Source of the DNA: Candidatus Latescibacterota bacterium
GTDB lineage: Bacteria; Latescibacterota; UBA2968
Reading direction: 5' to 3'
Length of the DNA stretch: 64,000 nucleotides
NCBI GenBank assembly: GCA_965207885.1
Contig: OZ242311.1
Coordinates: forward strand, 5,600,001 to 5,664,000
Below the pieces are notes generated by a model. It made no database searches, was not told the origin of the DNA, and was given only the letters and a program-made list of their open reading frames with translations. Made by a program: the position numbers and the translations under genes. Shown here piece by piece: positions 10,147 to 24,051 of the stretch. Within the stretch, counting starts at the first letter, position 1. Every line of letters starts with the position of its first letter.

Positions 10147-11172
10147 GTGGCCGAATTGACAAAACGCCCCGTGATTGGCGTAACCGTGGGCGACCCGGCG
10201 GGAATTGGACCAGAGGTCGTGATCAAGGCACTGTGTGAACCCGCGCTTTATAACGACGTAAAGCCACTGGTCTTTGCCGACCGATCGATTTTGGAACAAA
10301 CGGTCAAGATGCTGGGTGTGGATATGGATCTGCACACCGTAAACAATCCACACAACGGGCATTATGAAGTCGGGTGTATCGACTTTATTGACGTTGAGAG
10401 TCTGTCTGAGCCAATTGCCTATGGCCAGATCTCTGCCGAAGGTGGTCGGGCGGGATATCAATATTTGGACCGGGCAATTGATGCGGCTCTATCAGGTACC
10501 GTAGCTGGCCTATCCACAGCGCCATTGAACAAAGAATCGTTGCAGGCTGCAAAGTTACCTTATATTGACCACACGGCGATGCTCAATGCGCGAGCGGCAT
10601 TGCGAGTGCCGATGACGCTATTTTTGGTAAAAAATTTGAAAATCTTCTTTCTCACCCGACATATTTCCTTTCGGGAAATCCCAGATGCCATTACAAAAGC
10701 GGGAATTCTGGAAGCATTGCCGCTCTGCGACCTGTATTTGCGGCAACTGGGAACGGAAACACCGACCATAGCTGTGGCCGGCTTAAACCCACACGGCGGC
10801 GAACAGGGTCTGTTTGGACGAGAGGAAATCGAAGTAATCAGCCCCGCTGTAGAAGAAGCGCAAAAACGCGGATGGCTGGTACAAGGACCAATACCAGCGG
10901 ACTCGGTATTTCATCTGGCGCTGGAAGGGCGTTACGATGGGGTATTATCGCTTTACCACGACCAGGGGCATATCGCATCCAAAACGCTGGATTTCCACGG
11001 AACAGTAAGCCTGACAATGGGACTGAAATTTCTGCGCACATCAGTAGATCACGGAACCGCCTTTGACATTGCCGGACAGGGAATAGCGTCAGAACGGGGC
11101 ATGGTAGAAGCAATTCGCGCGGCCGGAAAATATGCGGTGCCAGTACGCGAGCGATTGGAAATGAGTCGATAA
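10147..11172 (+). CDS. pdxA: 4-hydroxythreonine-4-phosphate dehydrogenase family (PdxA/PdxA2)
   Basis: 'GDPAGIGPE', 'TAPLNKE', 'GLNPHGGE', 'YHDQGH', 'RTSVDHGTAFDIAG'; GTG start after AGGAGG (ORF is open from 10138). Confidence 0.92.
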   Translation: MAELTKRPVIGVTVGDPAGIGPEVVIKALCEPALYNDVKPLVFADRSILEQTVKMLGVDMDLHTVNNPHNGHYEVGCIDFIDVESLSEPIAYGQISAEGGRAGYQYLDRAIDAALSGTVAGLSTAPLNKESLQAAKLPYIDHTAMLNARAALRVPMTLFLVKNLKIFFLTRHISFREIPDAITKAGILEALPLCDLYLRQLGTETPTIAVAGLNPHGGEQGLFGREEIEVISPAVEEAQKRGWLVQGPIPADSVFHLALEGRYDGVLSLYHDQGHIASKTLDFHGTVSLTMGLKFLRTSVDHGTAFDIAGQGIASERGMVEAIRAAGKYAVPVRERLEMSR

Positions 11173-11173
11173 A

Positions 11174-11632
11174 ATGCCGTCAAACTACACCATTGCAAAA
11201 GAATTGAAGCGCGTGGCGGATTACCGTGAAATATGTGGTGAGGATCCAGCAGATTATCTCAATGCCGCCTGGATGGTCCAGTCGTTTTCACGCGGCAGGC
11301 TGGACGAGTTGTACCCAGTTGAAGGCAGGGAACTGCTGGAACGCACAAACGAGTTTAGCGACGAAGTGATAGACACAATCGTCGAAGTCATTGAAGGCAA
11401 AGAGATCCGCGCGTTGCAGGAGCGGCAGGGCGTTCCTTTGACCGTGCTGGAATTGGTCGAAATTCGGGGGATCGGTGGCAAAATGGCCAGGCGCCTTTTT
11501 AGCGAGCTGGGCGTGGTTGATTTGCGGGGCTTGCGGGCTGTCGTCGTGAACGGACAAATCAGCCAGGTAAAGGGCTTCAGGACAAAGACCATCGAGAAAA
11601 TCACTGCTTTTCTGGACGAAAAGGGAGTGTAG
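11174..11632 (+). CDS. Stand-alone helix-hairpin-helix protein resembling the PolX N-terminal (8 kDa + fingers) region
   Basis: 'N..IA..L...AD..EI.GE', 'IRGIGGKMARRLFSELGV..L..L', 'VKGFRTKT..KI'; no palm domain. Confidence 0.65.
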   Translation: MPSNYTIAKELKRVADYREICGEDPADYLNAAWMVQSFSRGRLDELYPVEGRELLERTNEFSDEVIDTIVEVIEGKEIRALQERQGVPLTVLELVEIRGIGGKMARRLFSELGVVDLRGLRAVVVNGQISQVKGFRTKTIEKITAFLDEKGV

Positions 11633-11648
11633 ATTTATCTGTATCCAC

Positions 11649-11678
11649 TTGATTTATTTGTGTAAGTATATATACTTA
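11649..11678 (+). promoter_or_regulatory. Sigma70-like promoter with a perfect 16-bp palindrome over the -10 box, upstream of the Mo-enzyme/nuo operon
   Basis: TTGATT-N16-TATACT; palindrome TAAGTATATATACTTA at 11663-11678. Confidence 0.55.
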
Positions 11679-11734
11679 TTGCAGTATTAACTTTTTGCAT
11701 CTCGAAACTCACCTCTCCTTACGAGGACCGCGCT

Positions 11735-14041
11735 ATGGCGATCAAAAAAGAAGACTATTTGGGAATTGAAAATTACAAAGTAGTGGGCACGCGACCCATT
11801 CGGCATGATGGAACGGATAAAGTAACGGGCCGCGCGGTATATGGTCCAGACTTTCACTTAACCGGATCGCTATACGGCAAAACACTGCGAAGCCCTCATG
11901 GACATGCGCGGATCAAATCCATCGACACCAGCAAAGCCGAAGCACTCCCCGGAGTAAAAGCCATAGTACTCGGAAAAGACCTCGTCCAAAATTACGAAGA
12001 CAAAGTCTCCGACCTCGGTGAGGGATCGGTCGATCTGCGATTCTTAATTGCCAATGTACTCGCCGGAGACAAAGTCCTCTACGACGGACACGCCATCGCA
12101 GCCGTAGCAGCCACCTCTGCACACATCGCAGAAGAGGCATTAAACCTGATCGACGTAGAATACGAAATACTCGAACCCGTACTCGAAGTCCGCCACGCAA
12201 TGGAAAACGACGCACCGCTATTGCACGACGATCTGAAAATGAAATCCCTCGGCGAAGAAACAGACCAGGCGAGCAACATCGCAAACCACTTCCAGCACAA
12301 ACAGGGAGATATAGAAAAGGGATTTGAAGAAGCGGACGTAGTCATAGAGCGGGAATTTGCAACCGGAACAGTACACCAGGGATACATCGAACCCCACAAC
12401 GTAACCGCGCACTGGAGCGAAAACGGAAAGCTCACAATATGGTGCAGTACGCAGGGACCATTTGAAGTGCGGGGCCAGGTCGCCGACGTACTCGGCCTCG
12501 AAGTGGGTGACATACGCGTAATCCCGCAGGAAATTGGAGGTGGATTTGGCGGAAAATTCCGCGTCTATGAAGAACCGACCGCAGCCCTGCTGGCCCAAAA
12601 AACCGGAAAACCCGTCAAAATGGTCATGTCCCGCACAGAAGTATTAAAAGCCACCGGACCAACGCCCGCATCCTACATCAAAGTCAAAATGGGCGCAACG
12701 CGGGACGGCCTGCTAACAGCGGCACAAGCCTACATGGCGTATGAAGCCGGAGCCTATCCCGGCTCTGCCGTAGGCGCTGGTGCGGGATGCATTTTCTCGC
12801 CCTACAGCATCCCAAACTCGCTCATCGACGGCTACGACGTCGTCGTAAACAAACCCCAATCGTCCGCCTACCGTGCACCCGGCGCGACCAATGCGGCATT
12901 TGCATCTGAAACAGTAATAGACGAAATATGCGAACAGATCGGAATGGACCCGCTCGAATTTCGATTGAAAAACGCGTCCAAAGAAGGCACGCGACGGGCA
13001 GATGGACCGGTCTTCTTGCGGATTGGTCAGGAAGAAGTCGTAAAAGCGGCCATGGCGCATCCACACTACAGCGCCCCCCTTGAAGGACCGAATCGGGGAC
13101 GCGGCGTCGCCGCTGGATTCTGGTTCAACGGCGGAGGCACATCAACAGTGGTCGCCAGTGTAAACCCGGACGGCACAGTAGCACTCGTCGAAGGCTCCCC
13201 CGATATTGGAGGAACGCGCACCTCAGTCGCCATACAATTTGCCGAAGTCCTGAACCTTCCCATCGAAGACATCAAGCCAAATGTCACGGACACCGACGCA
13301 ATCGGACAAACCGATGGAACGGGCGGAAGCCGCGTGACATTTGCAACCGGCTGGGCGAGCTATGAAGCCGCGCAAGACGTAAAGCGACAAATGATCGAAC
13401 GCGCGGCGACATTATGGGAAATATCAAAAGACGACATCGTCTTTGAAGACGGATCGTTCCGCTCCAAATCGGACGCATCCAAAACAATGACATTCAAAGA
13501 ACTCGCCGGTAATGTCAATCGCGCGGGTGGTCCCGTCGTAGGACGCGCTGCCATAAGCGGCAAGCAAGCCGGCCCGGCATTCGCCCTCTTAATCGTAGAT
13601 GTCGAAGTAGATCCTGACACGGGCAAAGTAGATATCTTGCGAGCGACCATTGTTCAGGACGCTGGCAAAGCCATTTATCCCGGCTATGTAGAAGGGCAGA
13701 TGCAGGGCGGCGTAGTACAGGGAATCGGATGGGCATTGAACGAGGAATTCGTGTACAACGACCAGGGCGTAATGGTCAACGCCTCTTTCCTGGATTATCG
13801 GATGCCCACAACACTCGACCTCCCCATGATAGAAACCGTCATCGTAGAAGTGCCCAACCCGGGCCATCCTTATGGCGTGCGGGGCGTGGGCGAAGTGCCC
13901 ATTGTCCCACCCCCAGCCGCAGTTGCCAACGCGATTTACCGCGCTGTTGGCATACGGCTAAACGAGCTGCCGATGTCGCCATCGCGAGTCCTGAAAGCAC
14001 TGTGGGAATCAGATGGCAGCCATGGCCAGGCGGCGGATTGA
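11735..14041 (+). CDS. Xanthine dehydrogenase-family molybdopterin-binding (large) subunit
   Basis: 'DKVTGRA.Y', 'RSPHGHA.I', 'GGGFGGK', 'AYRAPG', 'GGSR', 'VEGQMQGG', 'DYRMPT', catalytic Glu in 'GVRGVGE'. Confidence 0.92.
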   Translation: MAIKKEDYLGIENYKVVGTRPIRHDGTDKVTGRAVYGPDFHLTGSLYGKTLRSPHGHARIKSIDTSKAEALPGVKAIVLGKDLVQNYEDKVSDLGEGSVDLRFLIANVLAGDKVLYDGHAIAAVAATSAHIAEEALNLIDVEYEILEPVLEVRHAMENDAPLLHDDLKMKSLGEETDQASNIANHFQHKQGDIEKGFEEADVVIEREFATGTVHQGYIEPHNVTAHWSENGKLTIWCSTQGPFEVRGQVADVLGLEVGDIRVIPQEIGGGFGGKFRVYEEPTAALLAQKTGKPVKMVMSRTEVLKATGPTPASYIKVKMGATRDGLLTAAQAYMAYEAGAYPGSAVGAGAGCIFSPYSIPNSLIDGYDVVVNKPQSSAYRAPGATNAAFASETVIDEICEQIGMDPLEFRLKNASKEGTRRADGPVFLRIGQEEVVKAAMAHPHYSAPLEGPNRGRGVAAGFWFNGGGTSTVVASVNPDGTVALVEGSPDIGGTRTSVAIQFAEVLNLPIEDIKPNVTDTDAIGQTDGTGGSRVTFATGWASYEAAQDVKRQMIERAATLWEISKDDIVFEDGSFRSKSDASKTMTFKELAGNVNRAGGPVVGRAAISGKQAGPAFALLIVDVEVDPDTGKVDILRATIVQDAGKAIYPGYVEGQMQGGVVQGIGWALNEEFVYNDQGVMVNASFLDYRMPTTLDLPMIETVIVEVPNPGHPYGVRGVGEVPIVPPPAAVANAIYRAVGIRLNELPMSPSRVLKALWESDGSHGQAAD

Positions 14042-14058
14042 GCAGATAGGAGAACACA

Positions 14059-14433
14059 ATGGACTGGTTTTCGCAATACGGATTTCTCGGTGCCCTGCTC
14101 CTCTCGGGCATCGTTCTCGGTGCAATCCCCGTCGTACTGCCCTTAATCATATCCCCTCGCGCGCGCGGTCGCAAAAGCCGCGAGACCTACGAATGCGGCA
14201 TGGACACAATCGGCAGCGCCTGGGTGCGCTTCGATATTGCCTATTACCTATTTGCACTCATCTTTGTCGCATTTGAAGTCGATGTACTGTATATTCTTCC
14301 CATCGCCGTAATCTACGATTCGGGTACCTACGCCTGGCGCGACTTCATCGAACTCACAATCTTCGTCGGCATTCTTTTTCTCGCCATCATCTACGCCTGG
14401 AGCAAAGGCGTTTTGCACTGGAGAAGTCGATAA
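14059..14433 (+). CDS. nuoA: NADH-quinone oxidoreductase subunit A
   Basis: 'YECG', '[14 protein letters not shown]', 3 TM helices. Confidence 0.93.
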
Positions 14434-14966
14434 TGGCACAAATAGAACTCCCTCTCGTGAAAAGCGATCCCAAAGACATTGAAGAACTGCGTGAAGAGGT
14501 CGGTCCTCTGGTACACATGGACCTGCTGGAAAACCTGCTCAATCACGCCCGGTCTCGATCCCTGTGGCCCCTCACATTCGGCCTGGCCTGTTGCGCCATC
14601 GAAATGATGGCCGCAGGCGCAGCGCGCTTTGACCTCGACCGCATTGGCGCGGGCGTCTTTCGCCCGAGTGCGCGACAAGCCGATGTCATGATTCTCGCAG
14701 GCACAATCTCCCGCAAAATGGCACCAGCCATCAAAACGCTCTGGGATCAGATGCCCTCGCCCAAATGGGCCATAGCCATGGGGGGTTGCACCATCGACGG
14801 CGGCCCCTTTAAGTATCCCGGACAATATGCCATTGTCGAAGGCGCAGACAAAATTGTGCCCGTTGATGTGTACGTACCGGGCTGCCCCCCGCGCCCCGAA
14901 GCGCTCTTCGCCGCACTGTTCAAACTCGAAGAAAAAATCCGAGCCGGAAAGAAATTCAATAAATGA
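14433..14966 (+). CDS. nuoB: NADH-quinone oxidoreductase subunit B
   Basis: '[11 protein letters not shown]', 'MGGC', 'VPGCPPRPE'. Confidence 0.95.
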
Positions 14967-15424
14967 TCGCCGACAAACTCTCTACGCTCGTGATCGACGC
15001 GACCGAGGTCACATACGACGCGCATGGTTTTCATGTACAACACACCGCTTCAGCCGACACGCTCCCTCAGATCGCAGATGCCTTCCTGTCCGAAAATTTT
15101 CACCTCGAAATGATAACCTGTCAGGATCGACGTGAAAACGACAATACTTTTCGTCTGATTTACCAGTTTAACCAATACGGCATTCCCCAACGGCATATCA
15201 TCCACGCCGACATAGCACCCGATACAGCCGCACCCAGTATTGCCACAACCTTTCCCGCTGCCGACTGGTACGAACGCGAAATTTTCGACATGTATGGCGT
15301 CAGCTTTGAAGGCCATCCCGATTTGAAACGCATCTTAATGGAAGAAGACTATTTTGGTCATCCCCTGCTCAAAGACTTCGTCGATCCCCCCAATCCCTAT
15401 CGCAGTGAGGACGACGCGTCATGA
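14963..15424 (+). CDS. nuoC: NADH-quinone oxidoreductase subunit C
   Basis: '[25 protein letters not shown]', 'GHPLLKDF'. Confidence 0.93.
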
Positions 15425-16548
15425 ATCGATTTGAGGTCGAACAAGACCCAAAAAGTCGAGACACCTATTATCTCAACATGGGGCCTCAGCATCCCTCTAC
15501 CCACGGCGTCATGCGGATCAAACTGCACCTGGATGGCGAACGGATAATTTCAGCAGAACCCATCATCGGATATGGGCATCGCGCACACGAAAAAATGGCC
15601 GAAAACCGCGACTACATCCAGTTTTTGCCCAACCCCAGTCGCGTAGATTACCTCGGCGGCATGATCTACAACATAGGCTACTGCCAGGCCGTAGAGCGCG
15701 CGATGGACATCGAAGTGCCAGAACGCGCCGAATACATCCGCATCATCTGCAATGAGCTCAACCGCATCTCCAGCCACCTGCTCTGGCTGGGCACCTTTTT
15801 GATGGATCTGGGTGCATTTACCCCATTTCTCTACGCCTTTGACGACCGCGAAAAAATCCTCGACATCCTGGACCGCATCACCGGATCGCGCCTCACCTAT
15901 TGTTACGCGCGATTTGGCGGCGTCATTCTCGACATCGACGATATATTCCTCGACAACGTCTCCAACTTTTGCACCTACTTTGTCGAACGCTTAAAAGAAT
16001 ACGAAAGACTCGTCATCGGCAACGTCATCTTCCGCGAACGCACCATCGGCGTCGGCATCTTCGCGCCCGACCTCGTTCAAAAATACGCCATAACAGGTCC
16101 CTGCCTGCGCGCCATGGGCCACGAACACGATGTCCGCAAAGACGAACCTTACGGCATCTACGACCGCTTTGACTTTGACGTACCCACACAAACAGAAGGC
16201 GACTGCTTTGCCCGCACACTCGTTCGCGTGGAAGAAATGCGCCAGAGCATTCGCATCATCGAACAAGCCGTAAGCGACACGCCCGACGGTCTCTTTCTCG
16301 CAGCCCGGGTGCCCAGACGCATCCGCCCGCCCGAAGGCGACTATTACTTCTGTGTTGAATCACCCCGTGGCAACTTTGGCATGTACATCGCAAGCGACGG
16401 CAGCGACATTCCCTTTCGCCTCAAATTGCGAACCCCATCGTTCTCACACATCTCGACCATGCCCGCCGTCATGGCCGGCACCATGCTCGCAGATGCCGTG
16501 GCAATCCTCGGTAGCATCGACATTGTCGTTCCCGAAATAGACAGATAA
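15421..16548 (+). CDS. nuoD: NADH-quinone oxidoreductase subunit D
   Basis: '[12 protein letters not shown]', 'RVDY', 'ELNRISSHL', C-terminal 'DIVVPEIDR'; no NiFe CxxC motifs. Confidence 0.95.
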
Positions 16549-16555
16549 CGCACTT

Positions 16556-17530
16556 ATGAAAACAGACGTCATCCAACTCTTTGAAAACCCCTATCTCGCG
16601 CTCGGTGTAACCATTGCCGTCATCATGGCCTATTTGAGCGTCAACGCCATCATGTTGATCTGGCTCGAACGCAAACTCAGCGCGCGCATACAGCGCCGCA
16701 TTGGCCCGCAACGCGGACCCTTTGGCCTGATGCAGCAAATTTTTGACATGGGCAAATTGCTCAGCAAAGAACTCCTCACACCCGAACACGCCAACAAACT
16801 GCTCTATGTCATTGCGCCCATCCTGGTCTTTGCACCCGTGGTCGCCCTCTCGTCCCTCTTTCCCATAACGAGCACCTACATATTCCACGACTTCAACATC
16901 GCCATTGTCCTGATCCTCGCCATCAGCGGCATCAACGTAATCGGCATATTCTTAGCAGGCTGGGGATCCAATAACAAATACGCCCTGCTCGGTGCCGTGC
17001 GCTCAGTCGCGCAAAATATCTCCTACGAAATCCCCCTCATCCTATCGGTCATCCCCATCGTCATGATAACCCGCACCATGTCGCTCTACGACATCACCCT
17101 CGCACAGGAAACCTATCCCTTTATACTGGTACAGCCCATTGCCCTGATCATCTTTATCATATCAGCCACAGCCGAAACCAATCGCGCCCCCTTCGACATC
17201 CCCGAAGCGGAATCCGAACTCGTCGCCGGATTCCACACCGAATATTCCGGCATGCGCTTTGGGCTATTCTTCTTTGCCGAATACTCCAACATGATCTTTG
17301 CATGCGCATTGGCAACCGTGCTCTTCCTGGGGGGATGGCGCGGGCCTCTCTTGCCAGACGCCGTATGGTTCTTCATCAAAGTCTATGCACTCATCGTCCT
17401 CATGATGTGGTTCCGCTGGACTTTTCCACGGCTCCGTTTTGACCAACTCATGAAATTCGCCTGGGTGGTACTCGTCCCCCTCTCGCTGATCAACCTGCTA
17501 ATCACAACACTCATCTTGAAAATCGTATAG
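16556..17530 (+). CDS. nuoH: NADH-quinone oxidoreductase subunit H
   Basis: 'ERK..A.IQ.R.GP', 'AETNRAPFD.PEAESELVAGF.TEYSG', 'PRLRFDQ'. Confidence 0.95.
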   Translation: MKTDVIQLFENPYLALGVTIAVIMAYLSVNAIMLIWLERKLSARIQRRIGPQRGPFGLMQQIFDMGKLLSKELLTPEHANKLLYVIAPILVFAPVVALSSLFPITSTYIFHDFNIAIVLILAISGINVIGIFLAGWGSNNKYALLGAVRSVAQNISYEIPLILSVIPIVMITRTMSLYDITLAQETYPFILVQPIALIIFIISATAETNRAPFDIPEAESELVAGFHTEYSGMRFGLFFFAEYSNMIFACALATVLFLGGWRGPLLPDAVWFFIKVYALIVLMMWFRWTFPRLRFDQLMKFAWVVLVPLSLINLLITTLILKIV

Positions 17531-17555
17531 AACTTTCAGCTCACAGGAAAATCCC

Positions 17556-18095
17556 ATGGCACTTATCAAAGAAATCCTCGACGGCACCAAAACGCTCCTG
17601 ACCGGCATGAAAGTCACACTGGACAACTTTCGCAAACCGCCCGTCACCTCGCAATATCCAATGGAAAAAATCGAGATGTCGGAAGCGTTTCGCAATGTCA
17701 TCGTCCTCATCGAAAAAGAAGACATCGGCTCGCACGACTGCATCGACTGCAAACTCTGTGAGCGCGTGTGTCCCTCCTTCTGCATTTACCTCGACGGGGA
17801 ACGCCCCGAAGGTTTAAGGCGCAAACGCTCGACCAAATTTGAAGTCGATTTTGCCCTTTGCAGCGACTGCGGACTGTGCTTAGACGTATGCCCCACAGAC
17901 ACCCTGGGATACAGCAAAGTCCACGACGAAGCCGGATACAATCGCAGCGACTTTCTCTACGACTTACTCGAACCCTGGGCAGACAAAGAAGAAGCCGCGC
18001 GCGAACGCCTGAAAGAAATCGAAGCCGAACAAGCAGCAGAACGCGCCAAAAAAACCGCAGCAAGAAAAGCGAAAAAGGTGAGACGGAAGAAGTAA
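17556..18095 (+). CDS. nuoI: NADH-quinone oxidoreductase subunit I (2x[4Fe-4S])
   Basis: CIDCKLCERVCP and CSDCGLCLDVCP; Lys/Arg-rich C-terminal tail. Confidence 0.92.
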   Translation: MALIKEILDGTKTLLTGMKVTLDNFRKPPVTSQYPMEKIEMSEAFRNVIVLIEKEDIGSHDCIDCKLCERVCPSFCIYLDGERPEGLRRKRSTKFEVDFALCSDCGLCLDVCPTDTLGYSKVHDEAGYNRSDFLYDLLEPWADKEEAARERLKEIEAEQAAERAKKTAARKAKKVRRKK

Positions 18096-18108
18096 ACGGA
18101 GAACAACA

Positions 18109-18621
18109 ATGCTCGAGCAGGCTGTCATCTACACATTTGTAGCCCTCGTCCTCATCGGTGGAGGCCTGGCGGCATTTTCTCGCCAGATACTCTACGCCAT
18201 TATCGGCCTGGGCATCAGTCTCTTAGGGCTGGCGGGACTATTTCTCAACCTCGGCAGTCCATTTGTCGCGGCAATGCAAGTACTCATCTACATTGGCGGC
18301 ATAACCGTTGCCATTGTATTTGCCATGATGCTCTCAATAGCCATGTCCATTCGCCCGCCCGATCCCGACAACCGAAAACTCGGCTTCGCCATTGCCTGTG
18401 CCGTCATCTTTTTTGGCGCAGTCGCCCATCTAATCCGCGGCGCGCAATTCCAACAAATCGCGCCCCAGACATCTGAAAAAGCCTGGTCTGTGGGCGCATT
18501 GGGCCATGCATTGCTCACGCATTACAACGTCGTCTTTGAAACCCTCTCCCTCGTTTTGCTCCTGGCCATCATCGGTGCCATCTTGATCGCTCGCAAGGCT
18601 TTGCCAAAGGAAAATTCGTGA
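18109..18621 (+). CDS. nuoJ: NADH-quinone oxidoreductase subunit J
   Basis: 'QVLIYIGGI.V...FA.ML', 'FE..S..LL.A.IGAI'. Confidence 0.92.
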   Translation: MLEQAVIYTFVALVLIGGGLAAFSRQILYAIIGLGISLLGLAGLFLNLGSPFVAAMQVLIYIGGITVAIVFAMMLSIAMSIRPPDPDNRKLGFAIACAVIFFGAVAHLIRGAQFQQIAPQTSEKAWSVGALGHALLTHYNVVFETLSLVLLLAIIGAILIARKALPKENS

Positions 18622-18923
18622 CCCTCGAATTTTATCTTCTCGTGGGCGCTGCCCTGTTTTCTCTCGGTTTGATCGGCGCACTATCCCACCGCAACCTCAT
18701 AGCCCTGCTCATCGGCATCGAACTCATGATGAATGCCGCCAGCTTAAACCTGATGGCCTTTAACCGGTTTGTCGTCACCGATCCAACGACCGGCCAGATC
18801 TTTGTCCTCATCATCATTGGGCTGGCAGCCGCCGAAGTCGCTATCTTTTTATCGATCATCCTGCGCATCTATCGGGCGTATCACGAGATAGATGCGGAAA
18901 AACTCACCAAACTGAGCGGTTGA
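18618..18923 (+). CDS. nuoK: NADH-quinone oxidoreductase subunit K
   Basis: 'IELMMNAA..N', 'AAAEVA'. Confidence 0.93.
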   Translation: MTLEFYLLVGAALFSLGLIGALSHRNLIALLIGIELMMNAASLNLMAFNRFVVTDPTTGQIFVLIIIGLAAAEVAIFLSIILRIYRAYHEIDAEKLTKLSG

Positions 18924-20746
18924 TGGACACTCTCTCACTCATACTTTTAACCACAATCTCCCCTCTGGCGTGTTTTGCCATCGCCATCATCTTTCTCATA
19001 CAACAACCCAAAGCCGCTCAGGGATTGGTCCTATTCGGCAGCGCGGTATCCCTCTTGAGTGCCATTGGCCTTCTCGTACAGGGACCTGTTGAACCCCTGC
19101 GATTTTTGTGGTTTCAAAGCGGTGCAATACAACTCCAATTTGGCTTCATCCTCGACGGTCCAAGCCTCCTGTTTGGCGTCGTCGTCGCCTTCATCACCGC
19201 CTGCATCATGCTCTATTCAATCGGCTACATGGCGCAAGACCCGGGCAAAACGCGCTATTTCGCAATGCTCAGTTTCTTTGCCTGGTCCATGCTCAGCTTT
19301 GTCTATGCCGTCGATCTCTTGCAATCTTTCATCTTTTGGGAACTCGTCGGCCTGTCTTCGTTCTTCCTCATCGGTTTCTGGTTTGAAAAACCCGAAGCTG
19401 CCGGGGCTGCGCGCAAAGCCTTTCTCATGACCCGCGTGGGCGACGTCGGCCTCTTTATCGGCATTTTGCTCATCCTCCAACTCGTTTCAAACTTCGATAT
19501 CCCCAGCCTCTTAGACCCTCAAACTGGCCTCTCAACACAGATATCGCCCAACCTGCTCAACGCAATCGCGCTACTCATCTTCATCGGCATCATGGGTAAA
19601 AGCGCGCAATTCCCCTTGCACACCTGGCTGCCCGACGCCATGGAAGGCCCCACCCCGGTCAGCGCCCTGTTGCACTCTGCCACCATGGTCGCCGCGGGCG
19701 TCTTTCTCATGATCCGCCTACACCCGCTCTTTATGGCGGCGCAAGACACAGCACTCATCGTCCTGAGCATCGCCACCTTCACCGCAATTCTCGCATCGAC
19801 CATTGCAATGGTCGATACCGACATCAAAAAAGTACTCGCCTATTCGTCCATCAGCCAACTCGGCTTCATGCTCATGGCACTCGCTGCTGGCAGCCTCTTC
19901 GCAGGCGTATTTCACCTGATCACCCACGCCTTCTTCAAAGCCTTGCTCTTCCTCTGCTCGGGCATCTACATCCACGCCTATCACACCAACAGCATGGCCG
20001 AAATTGGTCGCAGTGGAGGCCGCCGCCTCAAAGCAGCGACCCTTGGCCTCCTCATCGGTGGCGCTGCCCTATCGGGCGTTCCCCCACTGGCGGGATTCTG
20101 GAGCAAAGAAGAAATTTTTGCCCAACTGGGTCACAATGGCTTCAACATCTACATGGCCGGTGCATTTCTCGCGGCCTTTCTCACGGCCTATTACACATTC
20201 CGCATGATTTTCCTCATCACAAAACCCGATCAGGCACCTGCCACCGACCACAGCCATCCCGAACCCCTGAACATGAAAGTCCCCGTCTTGCTCCTCACCC
20301 TGGGCGCAATCGCACTCGGCTTTTTTGGCGCCAGCATCGCCGAGGGCCTGGGCCTCACAACACAGCACCACAGCGTCATCTTGATGATACCCACCGTAGG
20401 CGTCGTCATCCTCGGCATCCTGATCGCCTATTTCGACTACGGACGCGACAACGCGCCGCGCACGGGATTCATCAGCAAAATCGCACCACTCAATACCCTG
20501 TTCACAAACAAATGGTACATCGACGAAGTCTATCGCGTCACCATCGTCGCCATCACCCACGCACTATCTCGCATCTTGCACTGGATTGAAAACCACGTCC
20601 TCGACGGAAATTACGACCGCTTTGGCCTCGGCATCTTGCGCACGGGCGCAAAATCAACCCGCGTACAGGGCGGCTGGATGCAACTTTACCTGGGCTGGGC
20701 AATCATCTTATTGGCCGTTGTCGCGCTTTATCTGGGATTGCGATAA
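18923..20746 (+). CDS. nuoL: NADH-quinone oxidoreductase subunit L
   Basis: 'WELVGLSS', 'TRVGD', 'KSAQFPLHTWLPDAMEGPTPVSALLHSATMV', 'HAFFKALLF'. Confidence 0.95.
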   Translation: MDTLSLILLTTISPLACFAIAIIFLIQQPKAAQGLVLFGSAVSLLSAIGLLVQGPVEPLRFLWFQSGAIQLQFGFILDGPSLLFGVVVAFITACIMLYSIGYMAQDPGKTRYFAMLSFFAWSMLSFVYAVDLLQSFIFWELVGLSSFFLIGFWFEKPEAAGAARKAFLMTRVGDVGLFIGILLILQLVSNFDIPSLLDPQTGLSTQISPNLLNAIALLIFIGIMGKSAQFPLHTWLPDAMEGPTPVSALLHSATMVAAGVFLMIRLHPLFMAAQDTALIVLSIATFTAILASTIAMVDTDIKKVLAYSSISQLGFMLMALAAGSLFAGVFHLITHAFFKALLFLCSGIYIHAYHTNSMAEIGRSGGRRLKAATLGLLIGGAALSGVPPLAGFWSKEEIFAQLGHNGFNIYMAGAFLAAFLTAYYTFRMIFLITKPDQAPATDHSHPEPLNMKVPVLLLTLGAIALGFFGASIAEGLGLTTQHHSVILMIPTVGVVILGILIAYFDYGRDNAPRTGFISKIAPLNTLFTNKWYIDEVYRVTIVAITHALSRILHWIENHVLDGNYDRFGLGILRTGAKSTRVQGGWMQLYLGWAIILLAVVALYLGLR

Positions 20747-20749
20747 AAT

Positions 20750-22225
20750 ATGCCACTTCTCTCATCCATACTTCTCACGCCCGTCATCACGCTCATCATC
20801 CTTTTACTCATGCCCCAAAGGGCCGTGCGGGGTATCCGGCTAATATGCGCCTTCAGTGGCTTATTGACCTGTGTGTTGAGCCTGCAACTCTGGATGAGCT
20901 ATGATCCCACAACCAGCGGTATTCAATTTGAAGAAATAATCCCCTGGGTCGCAGCCATTGGCATCTCCTATCACCTCGGCGTTGACGGATTTGGCGTCAT
21001 CCTCGTCATGCTCAACGCCATCGTCTATTTCACCGGGGTACTCACCATGTGGGACCTCGAAGAGCGCGTCAAAGAATATTTCGCCTTCATGGTACTCCTC
21101 GTCATCGGCGTCTTCGGCGTCTTCATGTCGCTGGATCTCTTCTTCTTTTTCTTCTTTTACGAAATCGCTGTCGTCCCCATGTATCCCCTCATCCTGATAT
21201 GGGGCAGCGGCAACAGAGCTTATGCCGGCATGAAACTCATGCTCTTCCTCCTCGCCGGCAGCGCGCTCCTCTTTCCCGGCCTACTCGCCATCTATCACCA
21301 CGCGGGCCTCAACACCTTTGACATCATTGCCCTGTCCGCACACACATTCGATCCCCAATTCCAAATATTTGTCTATCCCTTTATCTACGTCGGCTTTGGC
21401 GTCTTGGCCGGCCTGTTCCCCTTCCACGGCTGGTCGCCCACAGGCCACGTTGCCGCGCCATCTGCTGTTTCCATGCTACACGCGGGCGTCCTGATGAAAC
21501 TCGGCGCATTTGGCATACTCACAGTCGGCATTCGCCTGCTACCCGAAGGCGCTGCGTACTGGGCACCGACCTTTGTGGTATTGGCCGTCATCGGAATCAT
21601 CTACGGAGCTTATGTCGCCATGCGACAGACCGACTTCAAATTTGTCATCGGCTTCTCATCTGTATCTCACATGGGCATTGTCCTCCTCGGCCTCAACCTC
21701 GCAATCCTCGGCCAGGTCGCTGCAACCGACGCCCTCAACGGCGCAGTCTTCCAGATGTTTGCCCACGGCATCATGACCGCCCTGTTTTTCAGCACCGCGG
21801 GATATATCTACGACAAATCCCACTCAAAAACCATTGGCGACTTTGGCGGTCTTGGCGTGCAGATGCCCCGCGCAGTCTCCATCTTCATCGTCGCGGGCCT
21901 GTGTGGTGCCGGTTTGCCCGGCCTGGCGAGCTTTTGGGCTGAATTACTCGTCTTCCTCGCCGCTTTGAAAACGTACCCCATCGCCGGCGTCATCGTCATC
22001 CTCGGTCTCGTACTCACCGCGGTTTACATCTTGCGCGTCTTCAACCTGGCCTTTTTTGGCGCACCAAATCCGAAATGGGAAAATCTGAAAGCACAGGACA
22101 TGTCTGGCCTGCACCTGATACCGCGCGCCATACTAATCGCCGTACTCGTGATCTTCGGCTTTGTACCCCGCCTCATGCTCGACCTGATCAACAGCACGAC
22201 CATAGCTTTCTTGGGTAATTTCTAA
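20750..22225 (+). CDS. nuoM: NADH-quinone oxidoreductase subunit M
   Basis: 'FYE...VPMY', 'PFHGW.P..HV.AP', 'LMKLG', 'SSVSHMG', 'MFAHG'. Confidence 0.93.
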   Translation: MPLLSSILLTPVITLIILLLMPQRAVRGIRLICAFSGLLTCVLSLQLWMSYDPTTSGIQFEEIIPWVAAIGISYHLGVDGFGVILVMLNAIVYFTGVLTMWDLEERVKEYFAFMVLLVIGVFGVFMSLDLFFFFFFYEIAVVPMYPLILIWGSGNRAYAGMKLMLFLLAGSALLFPGLLAIYHHAGLNTFDIIALSAHTFDPQFQIFVYPFIYVGFGVLAGLFPFHGWSPTGHVAAPSAVSMLHAGVLMKLGAFGILTVGIRLLPEGAAYWAPTFVVLAVIGIIYGAYVAMRQTDFKFVIGFSSVSHMGIVLLGLNLAILGQVAATDALNGAVFQMFAHGIMTALFFSTAGYIYDKSHSKTIGDFGGLGVQMPRAVSIFIVAGLCGAGLPGLASFWAELLVFLAALKTYPIAGVIVILGLVLTAVYILRVFNLAFFGAPNPKWENLKAQDMSGLHLIPRAILIAVLVIFGFVPRLMLDLINSTTIAFLGNF

Positions 22226-22226
22226 C

Positions 22227-23651
22227 ATGGAAAACGCTATCCTCTTCGCACCAGAACTTATTTGCCTGCTCATGGGCCTCGTGCTCTTTTTTGCCACAGT
22301 GCTCAACTGGTCCTATCGCACAACTCGGGGCATTGCCATTGCATCCGGCATAGCGATGATCGCCGCCTGTCTCTGGACCCTATCCCTTGAAGGCGAACCC
22401 TTCTTCCCGGGCATATACGCGGTTGACTTCTTTTCCCAATTGATCAAAACAGCTCTCGCAGTCGGATTCCTATTTGTCGTCATTGCCAGCGCCAACCCCC
22501 TCACAGTTGACCGCAATGGTTGGCTCGAGGTCCCCCTCTTCTTCATATTTTCCACACTCGGCATGATGATGATGGTCAGCGCGACCGAACTCCTCACCCT
22601 CTATGTCGCCATGGAACTGGCTGCCTATCCCGTCTATATCGTCGTTGCCCTTCACCGCAATACCGACATCGGCGGGGAAAGCGCCACCAAATACATGGTA
22701 CAGGGCATGGCAGCCTCGGCCATCTCGCTCTACGGCATGAGCTTTCTCTTTGGCACATTTGGCTCCACCTACTTCTCTGCCATCAGCATCCCACACGCCG
22801 CCGCGCAGCCCATCTTCTACCTGGGCCTGTTGCTCACACTCGCCGGCTTCTTCTTCAAACTCGGCGCCTTCCCCTTCCACTTTTGGGCACCCGACACGTA
22901 TGAAATCGCGCCCCATCCCATCATCACATTCATCGCCACCGTTTCCAAAATCGCCGCCATCGGCATCCTCTGTCGCCTGTTATCCCTCGCCATGCCCGGT
23001 GGCTGGGAATCGGGCCACGCCCAAACCGCGCTCATGTGGGCAAGCGTCATCGCAATGAGCCTGGGCAACCTGGCCGCACTCGCGCAAAAAGACCTCAAAC
23101 GCCTGCTCGGATATTCCACAGTCGCCCACGCCGGTTACGTGCTCCTCGCCCTTCAAACCTTCGCCGAATGGGGTCTTACCGCTGCCCTCTTTTACGCCAT
23201 TGGCTACTTTGCCATGTCCTTTGCGTGCTTCCTCGTCATCTGTGAAGTCGGTCGCAGCGAAGACCGCATCACCATCGACTCCGTATCTGGCCTTTACAAA
23301 CGCGCGCCATTCCTCTCCTTCACCTTGCTCATCGGCCTGTTTGGCCTCATTGGCCTCCCCCCCACTGTGGGCTTTGTCGGCAAATGGTTCCTCTTTTCTG
23401 CCGCCCTCCAGCGCGGTCAATTCTATCTCGTCCTCATCGCAGCCATCAACGCCGCGATCGCCCTGTATTATTATCTTCTCATCATTCGCCAACTCTACTG
23501 GGTAGAACCCACCACACAGAACACCATCAAACCCACGCCCCTCATCGCCGTCACCGCAATGGCGACCATCATCCTCGTAGTCGCAATGGGCACGGTCCCC
23601 GGACCCTTCTGGGACATGGCCGCACGCGCCGCACGCGCACTGATCAGTTGA
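22227..23651 (+). CDS. nuoN: NADH-quinone oxidoreductase subunit N
   Basis: 'E.A.KY', 'FKLGAFPFHFWAPD.YE', 'KRLLGYS..AHAGY', 'GLPP..GF.GK'. Confidence 0.93.
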   Translation: MENAILFAPELICLLMGLVLFFATVLNWSYRTTRGIAIASGIAMIAACLWTLSLEGEPFFPGIYAVDFFSQLIKTALAVGFLFVVIASANPLTVDRNGWLEVPLFFIFSTLGMMMMVSATELLTLYVAMELAAYPVYIVVALHRNTDIGGESATKYMVQGMAASAISLYGMSFLFGTFGSTYFSAISIPHAAAQPIFYLGLLLTLAGFFFKLGAFPFHFWAPDTYEIAPHPIITFIATVSKIAAIGILCRLLSLAMPGGWESGHAQTALMWASVIAMSLGNLAALAQKDLKRLLGYSTVAHAGYVLLALQTFAEWGLTAALFYAIGYFAMSFACFLVICEVGRSEDRITIDSVSGLYKRAPFLSFTLLIGLFGLIGLPPTVGFVGKWFLFSAALQRGQFYLVLIAAINAAIALYYYLLIIRQLYWVEPTTQNTIKPTPLIAVTAMATIILVVAMGTVPGPFWDMAARAARALIS

Positions 23652-23742
23652 TGAGCGCGCGAAAAAAAGAAAAAATATTCACCAAAATTAAATTTGTCTT
23701 ATATTCTATTACGCAATCATTCAACTAAAAGGAGATATGGCA

Positions 23743-24051
23743 ATGGAAACGATTGCCAAAAATAAAAACGCCACTGCTAAACAGGATCAACCAAAAGGAG
23801 ATATAGCAATGGACGCTGACACCACAAATAACAACACTGAACAGAGCCAACGGATAACAACCCTTGAGACAAATTTGGAATTTATCAAAGAACAGCTTTC
23901 AGATGTGAAACAGGACTTAAAAGACCTCAAGCAAGGGCAAGAAAATATTGAAACGCGGCTCAATACCCGGATTGACGATTTGATAAAATGGTATGTCCCC
24001 ACAACGGTTGTTGCGCTATTGCTTTTTGCTGCTGTCATGAAATTTTTATAA
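23743..24051 (+). CDS. Small coiled-coil protein with C-terminal TM helix (DUF1640/XhlA-like); second in-frame RBS and start at 23809
   Basis: Heptad pattern 'RITTLETNLEFIKEQLSDVKQDLKDLK'; hydrophobic C-terminus; AGGAG RBS; AT-rich. Confidence 0.7.
   Translation: METIAKNKNATAKQDQPKGDIAMDADTTNNNTEQSQRITTLETNLEFIKEQLSDVKQDLKDLKQGQENIETRLNTRIDDLIKWYVPTTVVALLLFAAVMKFL

Follow-up and report, generated by a model that had tools for sequence, protein, structure and literature searches.

The Mo-subunit gene and the nuo operon

We examined a stretch of 64,000 nucleotides (nt), here called the window, from the genome of Candidatus Latescibacterota bacterium (assembly GCA_965207885.1, contig OZ242311.1, positions 5,600,001 to 5,664,000, forward strand), in which a gene for the molybdenum-binding (Mo) L subunit of a xanthine-oxidase-family hydroxylase stands directly before an operon for an 11-subunit complex I. 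The Mo-subunit gene lies at 11735-14041 on the + strand and encodes 768 amino acids (aa); its Pfam domains and its place in a tree of L proteins (see below) identify it as the paralogue that we call coxL2, or L2. An earlier prediction, made from the nucleotide sequence of the window, had read this arrangement as a possible undescribed respiratory coupling, in which the Mo subunit, deprived of its usual partners, docks on complex I near NuoI in place of the missing NuoEFG module.

At the junction, the TGA of the Mo gene occupies 14039-14041, a spacer of 17 nt (14042-14058, + strand) contains a GGAG ribosome-binding site and no terminator-like or promoter-like site, and the ATG of nuoA follows at 14059, which agrees with the original prediction. 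The eleven genes downstream, all on the + strand, are nuoA (14059-14433, PF00507), nuoB (14433-14966, PF01058, with NF005012 above its cut-off), nuoC (14963-15424, PF00329), nuoD (15421-16548, PF00346, with NF004739 above its cut-off), nuoH (16556-17530, PF00146), nuoI (17556-18095, recognised by profile matches and sequence), nuoJ (18109-18621, PF00499), nuoK (18618-18923, PF00420), nuoL (18920-20746, PF00361 and PF00662), nuoM (20750-22225, PF00361) and nuoN (22227-23651, PF00361). Their intergenic gaps range from -4 to +25 nt, leaving no room for extra genes, and a scan of the operon by open reading frames (ORFs) and Pfam domains found the predicted nuoABCDHIJKLMN order and no NuoE, NuoF or NuoG domain. 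NuoB has cysteines at positions 53, 54, 119 and 151 in the N2-ligand pattern, while NuoD, which starts with GPQHPSTHG and ends in DIVVPEIDR, has no CxxC pairs and is free of the NiFe-hydrogenase cysteine motifs, as had been noticed before. These two features rule out a NiFe-hydrogenase relative, and the Q-module can be classed by its residues as complex-I-type, not hydrogenase-type. The best-scoring model for NuoD is PRK12322, with a score under that model's cut-off.

The same gene set and order without an N-module, as well as N2-type cysteines in NuoB and a NuoD without NiFe cysteines, are found in the 11-subunit complexes of the Bacillus cereus group, Desulfitobacterium hafniense and Dehalococcoides, as described in the available parts of PMC3144371 and PMC11238625. 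Unlike those complexes, the operon in the window is headed by a molybdenum-hydroxylase L gene, a type of head gene that the same parts of these two papers do not report. Full-text searches turned up no paper that describes a nuo operon with a hydroxylase gene at its head (results for coxL with nuoA were judged from their listing), and the available parts of PMC12993501 and PMC13200403 do not discuss the complex I of Latescibacterota.

The Mo subunit consists of an a/b-hammerhead domain (Ald_Xan_dh_C, PF01315, 93.4 bits) and two molybdopterin-cofactor-binding domains (MoCoBD_1, PF02738, 249.5 bits; MoCoBD_2, PF20256, 211.6 bits), each scoring above its cut-off. Two of its stretches, QEIGGGFGGK and RGVGEVP, line up with their counterparts in 1rm6 and 8uem, and both are invariant across our alignment of L proteins (A2, 28 rows). 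We take GGGFGG to be the cofactor-binding motif and the RGVGEVP stretch to mark the C-terminal catalytic glutamate of L subunits, and judged by this alignment the catalytic motifs are intact. In form I CO dehydrogenase, the active-site loop of CoxL, with its copper-binding cysteine, reads AYxCSFR. At that place the Mo subunit has SSAYRAPGATNA (AYRAPG), a loop without cysteine, so the earlier statement that it carries no CO dehydrogenase motif was correct; together with a TIGR02416 score of 329.1 bits, against a cut-off of 991.15, this loop rules out a form I aerobic CoxL. The best relative among solved structures is 1rm6, the alpha subunit of 4-hydroxybenzoyl-CoA reductase (E-value 1.1e-90, residues 14-756), and the top NCBIfam matches are to that same subunit (TIGR03194, 482.5 bits, cut-off 994.55) and to XdhA (NF043082, 464.7 bits, cut-off 780). 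Yet the protein falls far short of both of these cut-offs, as it does for every other NCBIfam equivalog, and its substrate is therefore unassigned. According to the available part of PMC8941161, the molybdenum-hydroxylase family is strongly expanded in sponge symbionts, with mostly unknown substrates.

Paralogues, partners and other electron routes in the genome

The genome, a single contig of 6.23 Mb that is 97% complete, contains five L genes, three genes for the 2Fe-2S subunit CoxS (PF01799) and three for CoxM, the subunit with flavin adenine dinucleotide (FAD; PF00941). Three of the L genes belong to complete M-S-L sets, at 3.22, 3.23 and 5.56 Mb, and the remaining two, the window gene and a gene at 3.73 Mb, are orphans. 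The window itself has no match to CoxS or CoxM, just as the original prediction had it, but all three matches to each family lie in the rest of the genome, at the three loci just named, so that the partners are missing from the neighbourhood and not from the organism.

Compared with the other L proteins of the genome, the window protein shows 67% identity to the one encoded at 3.22 Mb, 66% to the orphan at 3.73 Mb and 27-32% to the remaining two. In a maximum-likelihood tree of 55 L proteins (quick search, LG+G4, branch support by the Shimodaira-Hasegawa-like approximate likelihood-ratio test, SH-aLRT, only), rooted on this genome's two distant L genes, three clades can be distinguished, which we call L1, L2 and L3. 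The 3.22 Mb gene falls in L1, while L2 (SH-aLRT 99, 26 rows) brings together the window gene, the genes in second position in the sister family and an orphan of g2, another genus of the window's own family, and L3 (support 99) holds the 3.73 Mb orphan and a third gene of genome G029. The best match to the window protein in the sister family (75-77% identity) is accordingly the second L gene of a coxM-coxS-coxL1-coxL2 operon. There the order is MTS methyltransferase-coxM-coxS-coxL1-coxL2-YchF-outer-membrane beta-barrel, and at 3.22 Mb of the present genome it is rhodanese-MTS methyltransferase-coxM-coxS-coxL1-beta-barrel. The tree and these matching flanks show the window gene to be a relocated L2, formerly the second of the L genes in a coxM-coxS-coxL1-coxL2 operon; the M, S and L1 genes that it left behind remain in place, now 2.4 Mb away.

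Because the genome keeps this syntenic coxM-coxS-coxL1 set, FAD and 2Fe-2S partners for L2 would be available in trans, and the picture of a lone Mo subunit does not fit the search for orphan partner genes, which found three S and three M genes including those of the ancestral set at 3.22 Mb. The nearest M-S-L set, at 5.563-5.566 Mb, precedes the Mo gene by about 46 kb and was also considered as a source of partners, but the 3.22 Mb set is the likelier one, since the L protein of the nearest set is only 32% identical to the window protein and its locus is not syntenic. The orphan of clade L3 lies at 3733727-3736027 on the - strand, between a 3-hydroxyisobutyrate-dehydrogenase-like gene and a gene for an M20 peptidase. 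Its orthologue in G029 is found about 4 kb upstream of coxM-coxS-coxL1-coxL2.

Hydroxylase operons with several L genes behind one M-S pair are known to us from the sister family, from Binatia and from others, and the window gene resembles them in being orthologous to the second L gene and in having its domains and catalytic motifs intact; it differs from those of the sister family in lying 2.4 Mb from M-S-L1 and being attached to the nuo transcription unit. In a species-representative collection of 80 loci, nuo genes accompany 14, all in a clade of at least 95% identity. Among the 66 loci outside that clade, none of which has nuo genes within 6 kb, 32 show two or three L genes behind a single M-S pair, which is thus a common arrangement, and 18 an M-S pair with a single L, while 16 have no M or S within their flanks, some of these being on short contigs.

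As to complex I, NuoD has a single match in the genome, that of the window, and the window operon is therefore the only nuo cluster found. The only NuoE and NuoF domains of the genome are fused in one protein of 544 aa at 1.647 Mb, which adjoins a formate-dehydrogenase-type alpha subunit with a NuoG-like N-terminus. Profile searches of the whole genome gave no match to PF10588, no canonical NuoEFG N-module and no second nuo cluster. The formate-dehydrogenase-type alpha gene (region 1643946-1648389, - strand) is split into ORFs of 370 and 573 aa by an in-frame TGA, whose context (V-TGA-H-A-P-T-V) resembles a selenocysteine codon rather than a break.

The sister family and genus g2 carry a separate NuoF of 438-447 aa beside a NuoCD-type gene, from which it follows that the genus of the window seems to hold only the enzyme without an N-module. 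In the sister family and g2 (G039, G029, G021) there are two NuoD-type genes, one of them of the NuoCD type with NuoF nearby; the window genus has a single NuoD, only 48-50% identical to those NuoDs, and no separate NuoF. Such a distribution points to loss of an NADH-dependent complex I from the window genus, the remaining one being of different origin. NADH has another route through Na+-NQR, for which subunits NqrA, B, C and F score above curated cut-offs. A 2-oxoacid:acceptor oxidoreductase, encoded 19 kb beyond the end of the window (alpha subunit 633.3 bits, cut-off 482.75), could be a source of reduced ferredoxin.

Reach, transcription and constraint

Orthologues of L2 at 95-99% identity occur in 16 of 20 other species of the genus, and in all 16 they are directly followed by nuoA, nuoB and nuoC. 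The spacer has the same length as in the window in 15 of these species, which makes chance an insufficient explanation of the spacing; the exception, G009, has an insertion of about 107 nt. In G009 the spacer insertion displaces the GGAG site, and the Mo gene has a further insertion, of 1 nt, close to its 3' end, which alters the last residues of the protein. The linked species diverge by a synonymous distance (dS) of 0.24-0.36 in the four orthologues compared. The 14 nuo-linked loci of the species-representative collection largely overlap these 16 genomes.

The other four species of the genus, with a NuoD of 89-90% identity, lack an L2 orthologue, their best matches reaching 65-67%, and nuoA has no L gene nearby in any of them. 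In three of them a hydrophobic protein of 143-147 aa, belonging to no Pfam family, ends 13-16 nt before nuoA; in the fourth, the gene ahead of nuoA encodes a Na:alanine symporter and stops 116 nt short of it. The 147-aa ORF upstream of nuoA in G016 has no family above cut-off, and a copy of 45% identity is encoded at 4.727 Mb of the window genome. It can also be seen that nuoI is 0.1-2 Mb from nuoD in three of the unlinked species (G001, G016 and G011) and contiguous in G018, as in the window. No adjacency was found in 20 genomes of other genera, where the L2-like gene and NuoD are far apart or on separate contigs. Conservation of the Mo-nuoA adjacency, which had been proposed as a check, thus extends to 16 species of one genus and fails in the four others, in the 20 genomes of other genera and in 66 of 66 outside loci. 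By this comparison of genomes the linkage is real and stable, but young and limited to part of one genus.

An AT-rich gap of 102 nt in front of the Mo gene contains a promoter-like site, TTGATT-16 nt-TATACT (11649-11676, + strand), with 9 of 12 consensus matches. It is the sole promoter-like site on the + strand within 10636-20876, as found by a crude consensus scan in a phylum whose promoters are uncharacterised. The scan detected none in 11677-14058 and no terminator-like site at the junction. A stretch of about 85 nt that leads up to the Mo start and takes in this element is kept in 16 of 17 orthologous loci, with TAGATT as the first hexamer in five loci, and the genes that abut the element vary (a helix-hairpin-helix gene, pdxA, others). 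In the window this neighbour, at 11174-11632, encodes a helix-hairpin-helix protein of 152 aa that resembles the N-terminus of PolX (below cut-off) and is present in some orthologous loci and absent from others.

The sequencing runs that hold the stretch, RNA and DNA alike, are mostly labelled sponge metagenomes. RNA contigs were placed at a likeness of at least 92% and come from close relatives (92-99% alike). In four of four metatranscriptome runs, from three studies, contigs bridge the junction (13903-14159, 13468-14182, 13478-14991 and 13600-14111), reaching 53-933 nt into the nuoA side, and 11697, 11807 and 11849 are the first positions of contigs that cover the Mo gene. Cover by RNA contigs is low at 11473-11663, which is compatible with a transcript start near 11690, though missing cover proves nothing. 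One contig of an RNA library (run X9) joins 11163 to 11709 and matches a strain variant without the helix-hairpin-helix gene.

Co-transcription of the Mo gene and the nuo genes from a promoter before the Mo gene is likely in the light of these observations, and the operon-level linkage of the original prediction is supported by its retention in 16 species, by the position of the only promoter-like site and by the bridging contigs in every run. One may also consider that the adjacency has no transcriptional meaning, with nuoA expressed from a start site within the 3' end of the Mo gene, which would then be a mere neighbour. The crudeness of the promoter scan leaves room for such a site, assembled contigs are not proof of one transcript, and the head gene of the nuo operon varies among species of the genus. 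Nevertheless, neither a promoter-like site on the + strand between 11677 and 14058 nor a terminator-like site at the junction was seen and contigs of all four RNA runs span 14042-14058, and we consider this explanation improbable.

Selection on the Mo gene resembles that on its new neighbours. Its ratio of nonsynonymous to synonymous divergence (dN/dS) is 0.025-0.047 in comparison with four orthologues, a range like those of nuoA (0.023-0.052) and nuoB (0.023-0.065). Of 190 columns that are invariant in the 23 other sequences of A2, two are changed throughout the nuo-linked clade; the corresponding counts are 0 of 187 for operon-bound L2, 1 of 199 for L1 and 1 of 192 for L3. The stem branch of the nuo-linked clade measures 0.13, as against 0.18 for the clade of operon-bound L2. 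Nothing in these comparisons suggests that the Mo subunit lost its interfaces with S and M or gained a new one.

The long charged C-terminal tail originally noticed on NuoI, a protein with two 4Fe-4S motifs, does exist (44 aa, of which 15 are K/R and 10 D/E). The tail is kept in the four unlinked species (85-87% identity over residues 1-178) and recognisable in another genus, and since it is present where there is no linkage it is no adaptation to the Mo subunit; the description of a basic tail stands but its presumed specificity does not. Complex prediction for the Mo subunit with NuoI, from alignments A2 and A1 (NuoI, 8 rows), gave no answer (score 0.00 in two runs, controls not folded) and speaks neither for nor against binding.

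Relocation or respiratory coupling

The reading that we prefer, and to which we would assign a probability of roughly 0.6, is that a relocated coxL2 paralogue is co-expressed with a ferredoxin-type 11-subunit complex I. According to it, L1, L2 and L3 would be old paralogues of the catalytic subunit of a heterotrimeric xanthine-oxidase-family hydroxylase, and in one sub-clade of the genus L2 would have left coxM-coxS-coxL1-coxL2 and landed before nuoA with its own promoter, to be transcribed, very probably, together with the eleven nuo genes. The L2 protein would still assemble with CoxS and CoxM from the 3.22 Mb locus, giving an ordinary soluble or membrane-associated hydroxylase whose electrons leave from its FAD. 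The nuo genes would encode an ordinary complex I without an N-module, most likely fed by reduced ferredoxin that may be generated, for example, by the 2-oxoacid:acceptor oxidoreductase, while NADH would be oxidised by Na+-NQR. The linkage would then provide co-expression, and perhaps a regulatory tie of an oxidative catabolic enzyme to the respiratory chain, and not a new physical input module. The gene order is new and the parts appear ordinary, so that relocation of one of several interchangeable L subunits is probably the simplest account, and the arrangement is probably not a new respiratory machine.

Several points weigh against this reading. The pairing of L2 with the CoxS and CoxM of the 3.22 Mb locus is something we infer from ancestry and gene counts. 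Repeated rearrangement of the DNA immediately upstream has spared the junction in 16 species, and this could mean that the linkage was selected for a functional reason, although a spacer of 17 nt is also a small target for breakage. The RNA contigs are assemblies, which cannot prove a single transcript and may include DNA carry-over. In addition, the electron donor of the 11-subunit complex I is open in the literature, as far as the available parts of PMC11238625 and PMC3144371 go, and a specific partner is possible.

Such a partner could be the whole hydroxylase, that is L2 with CoxS and with or without CoxM, acting as a dedicated donor to complex I, either at the NuoI face or via ferredoxin. 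Hydroxylation of the substrate would then drive proton pumping, and the fusion of the operons would fix the stoichiometry of donor subunit and pump. The tight and conserved linkage, the single promoter-like site before the Mo gene, the RNA contigs across the junction and a genome without an N-module for the complex I of the window are all consistent with this possibility, as is the suggestion, in the available parts of PMC3144371 and PMC11238625, that varied donors might dock on the Q-module. On the other hand, the linkage is limited to one shallow clade, sister species with Nuo proteins about 90% identical and the same NuoI tail have no L2, L2 shows no shift in constraint, and the S and M genes are not co-located with it. 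We thus regard the whole hydroxylase as an unlikely donor, and the more specific proposal, that the L2 hydroxylase with CoxS (perhaps CoxM) in trans is the dedicated, substrate-specific input module of the complex I without N-module, as quite doubtful. Alternative input modules are known among relatives of complex I, such as FpoF of the F420H2 dehydrogenase and the ferredoxin-binding NdhS of cyanobacterial NDH-1. These resemble the arrangement proposed here in offering a non-NADH donor to the same 11-subunit core, but they are lineage-wide and bind the core, whereas the Mo gene is lineage-restricted and its association is one of gene order.

L subunits of this family have no iron-sulfur cluster and hand their electrons to the cluster of the S subunit. 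For this and other reasons it is very improbable that the Mo subunit docks near NuoI by itself, with neither an FAD nor a 2Fe-2S partner, and takes the place of NuoEFG. In favour of that model, the window has no partner genes, the Mo gene heads the operon and the NuoI tail is basic. Against it, partner genes exist in trans at the ancestral locus, the orthologues belong to M-S-L1-L2 operons, the tail is older than the linkage and does not depend on it, and L2 is as constrained as its operon-bound orthologues. Direct docking of the Mo subunit on complex I is likewise unsupported in the face of partners in trans, a shallow clade, unshifted constraint and an unspecific tail, and the undescribed respiratory coupling of the original prediction is reduced to a weak lead, the evidence favouring a young, lineage-restricted relocation with partners elsewhere.

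If the hydroxylase were nonetheless a dedicated input module, proton pumping would draw directly on the oxidation of an aldehyde or heterocycle, and the partnership would have left its genetic mark in the fused operon. The donor of the widespread 11-subunit complex I is an unsolved question in the available parts of PMC3144371 and PMC11238625, and a donor gene within a nuo operon would make it directly testable. Under the preferred relocation, the locus serves as an example of the dispersal of L paralogues in sponge symbionts and of an operon gaining a new head gene. It also offers a specific and cheap hypothesis for proteomics of the sponge holobiont.

Two further observations concern the surroundings of the operon. 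An ORF of 104 aa (23737-24051) lies 85 nt past nuoN and has weak coiled-coil-type matches (XhlA, GrpE), all under cut-offs. The + strand of the window, which is mostly coding, is C- and A-rich, with a GC skew of -0.14 to -0.34 and a mostly positive AT skew; this strand asymmetry is strong and near-uniform over positions 1-64000, with breaks near 10-12, 36-38 and 56-58 kb.

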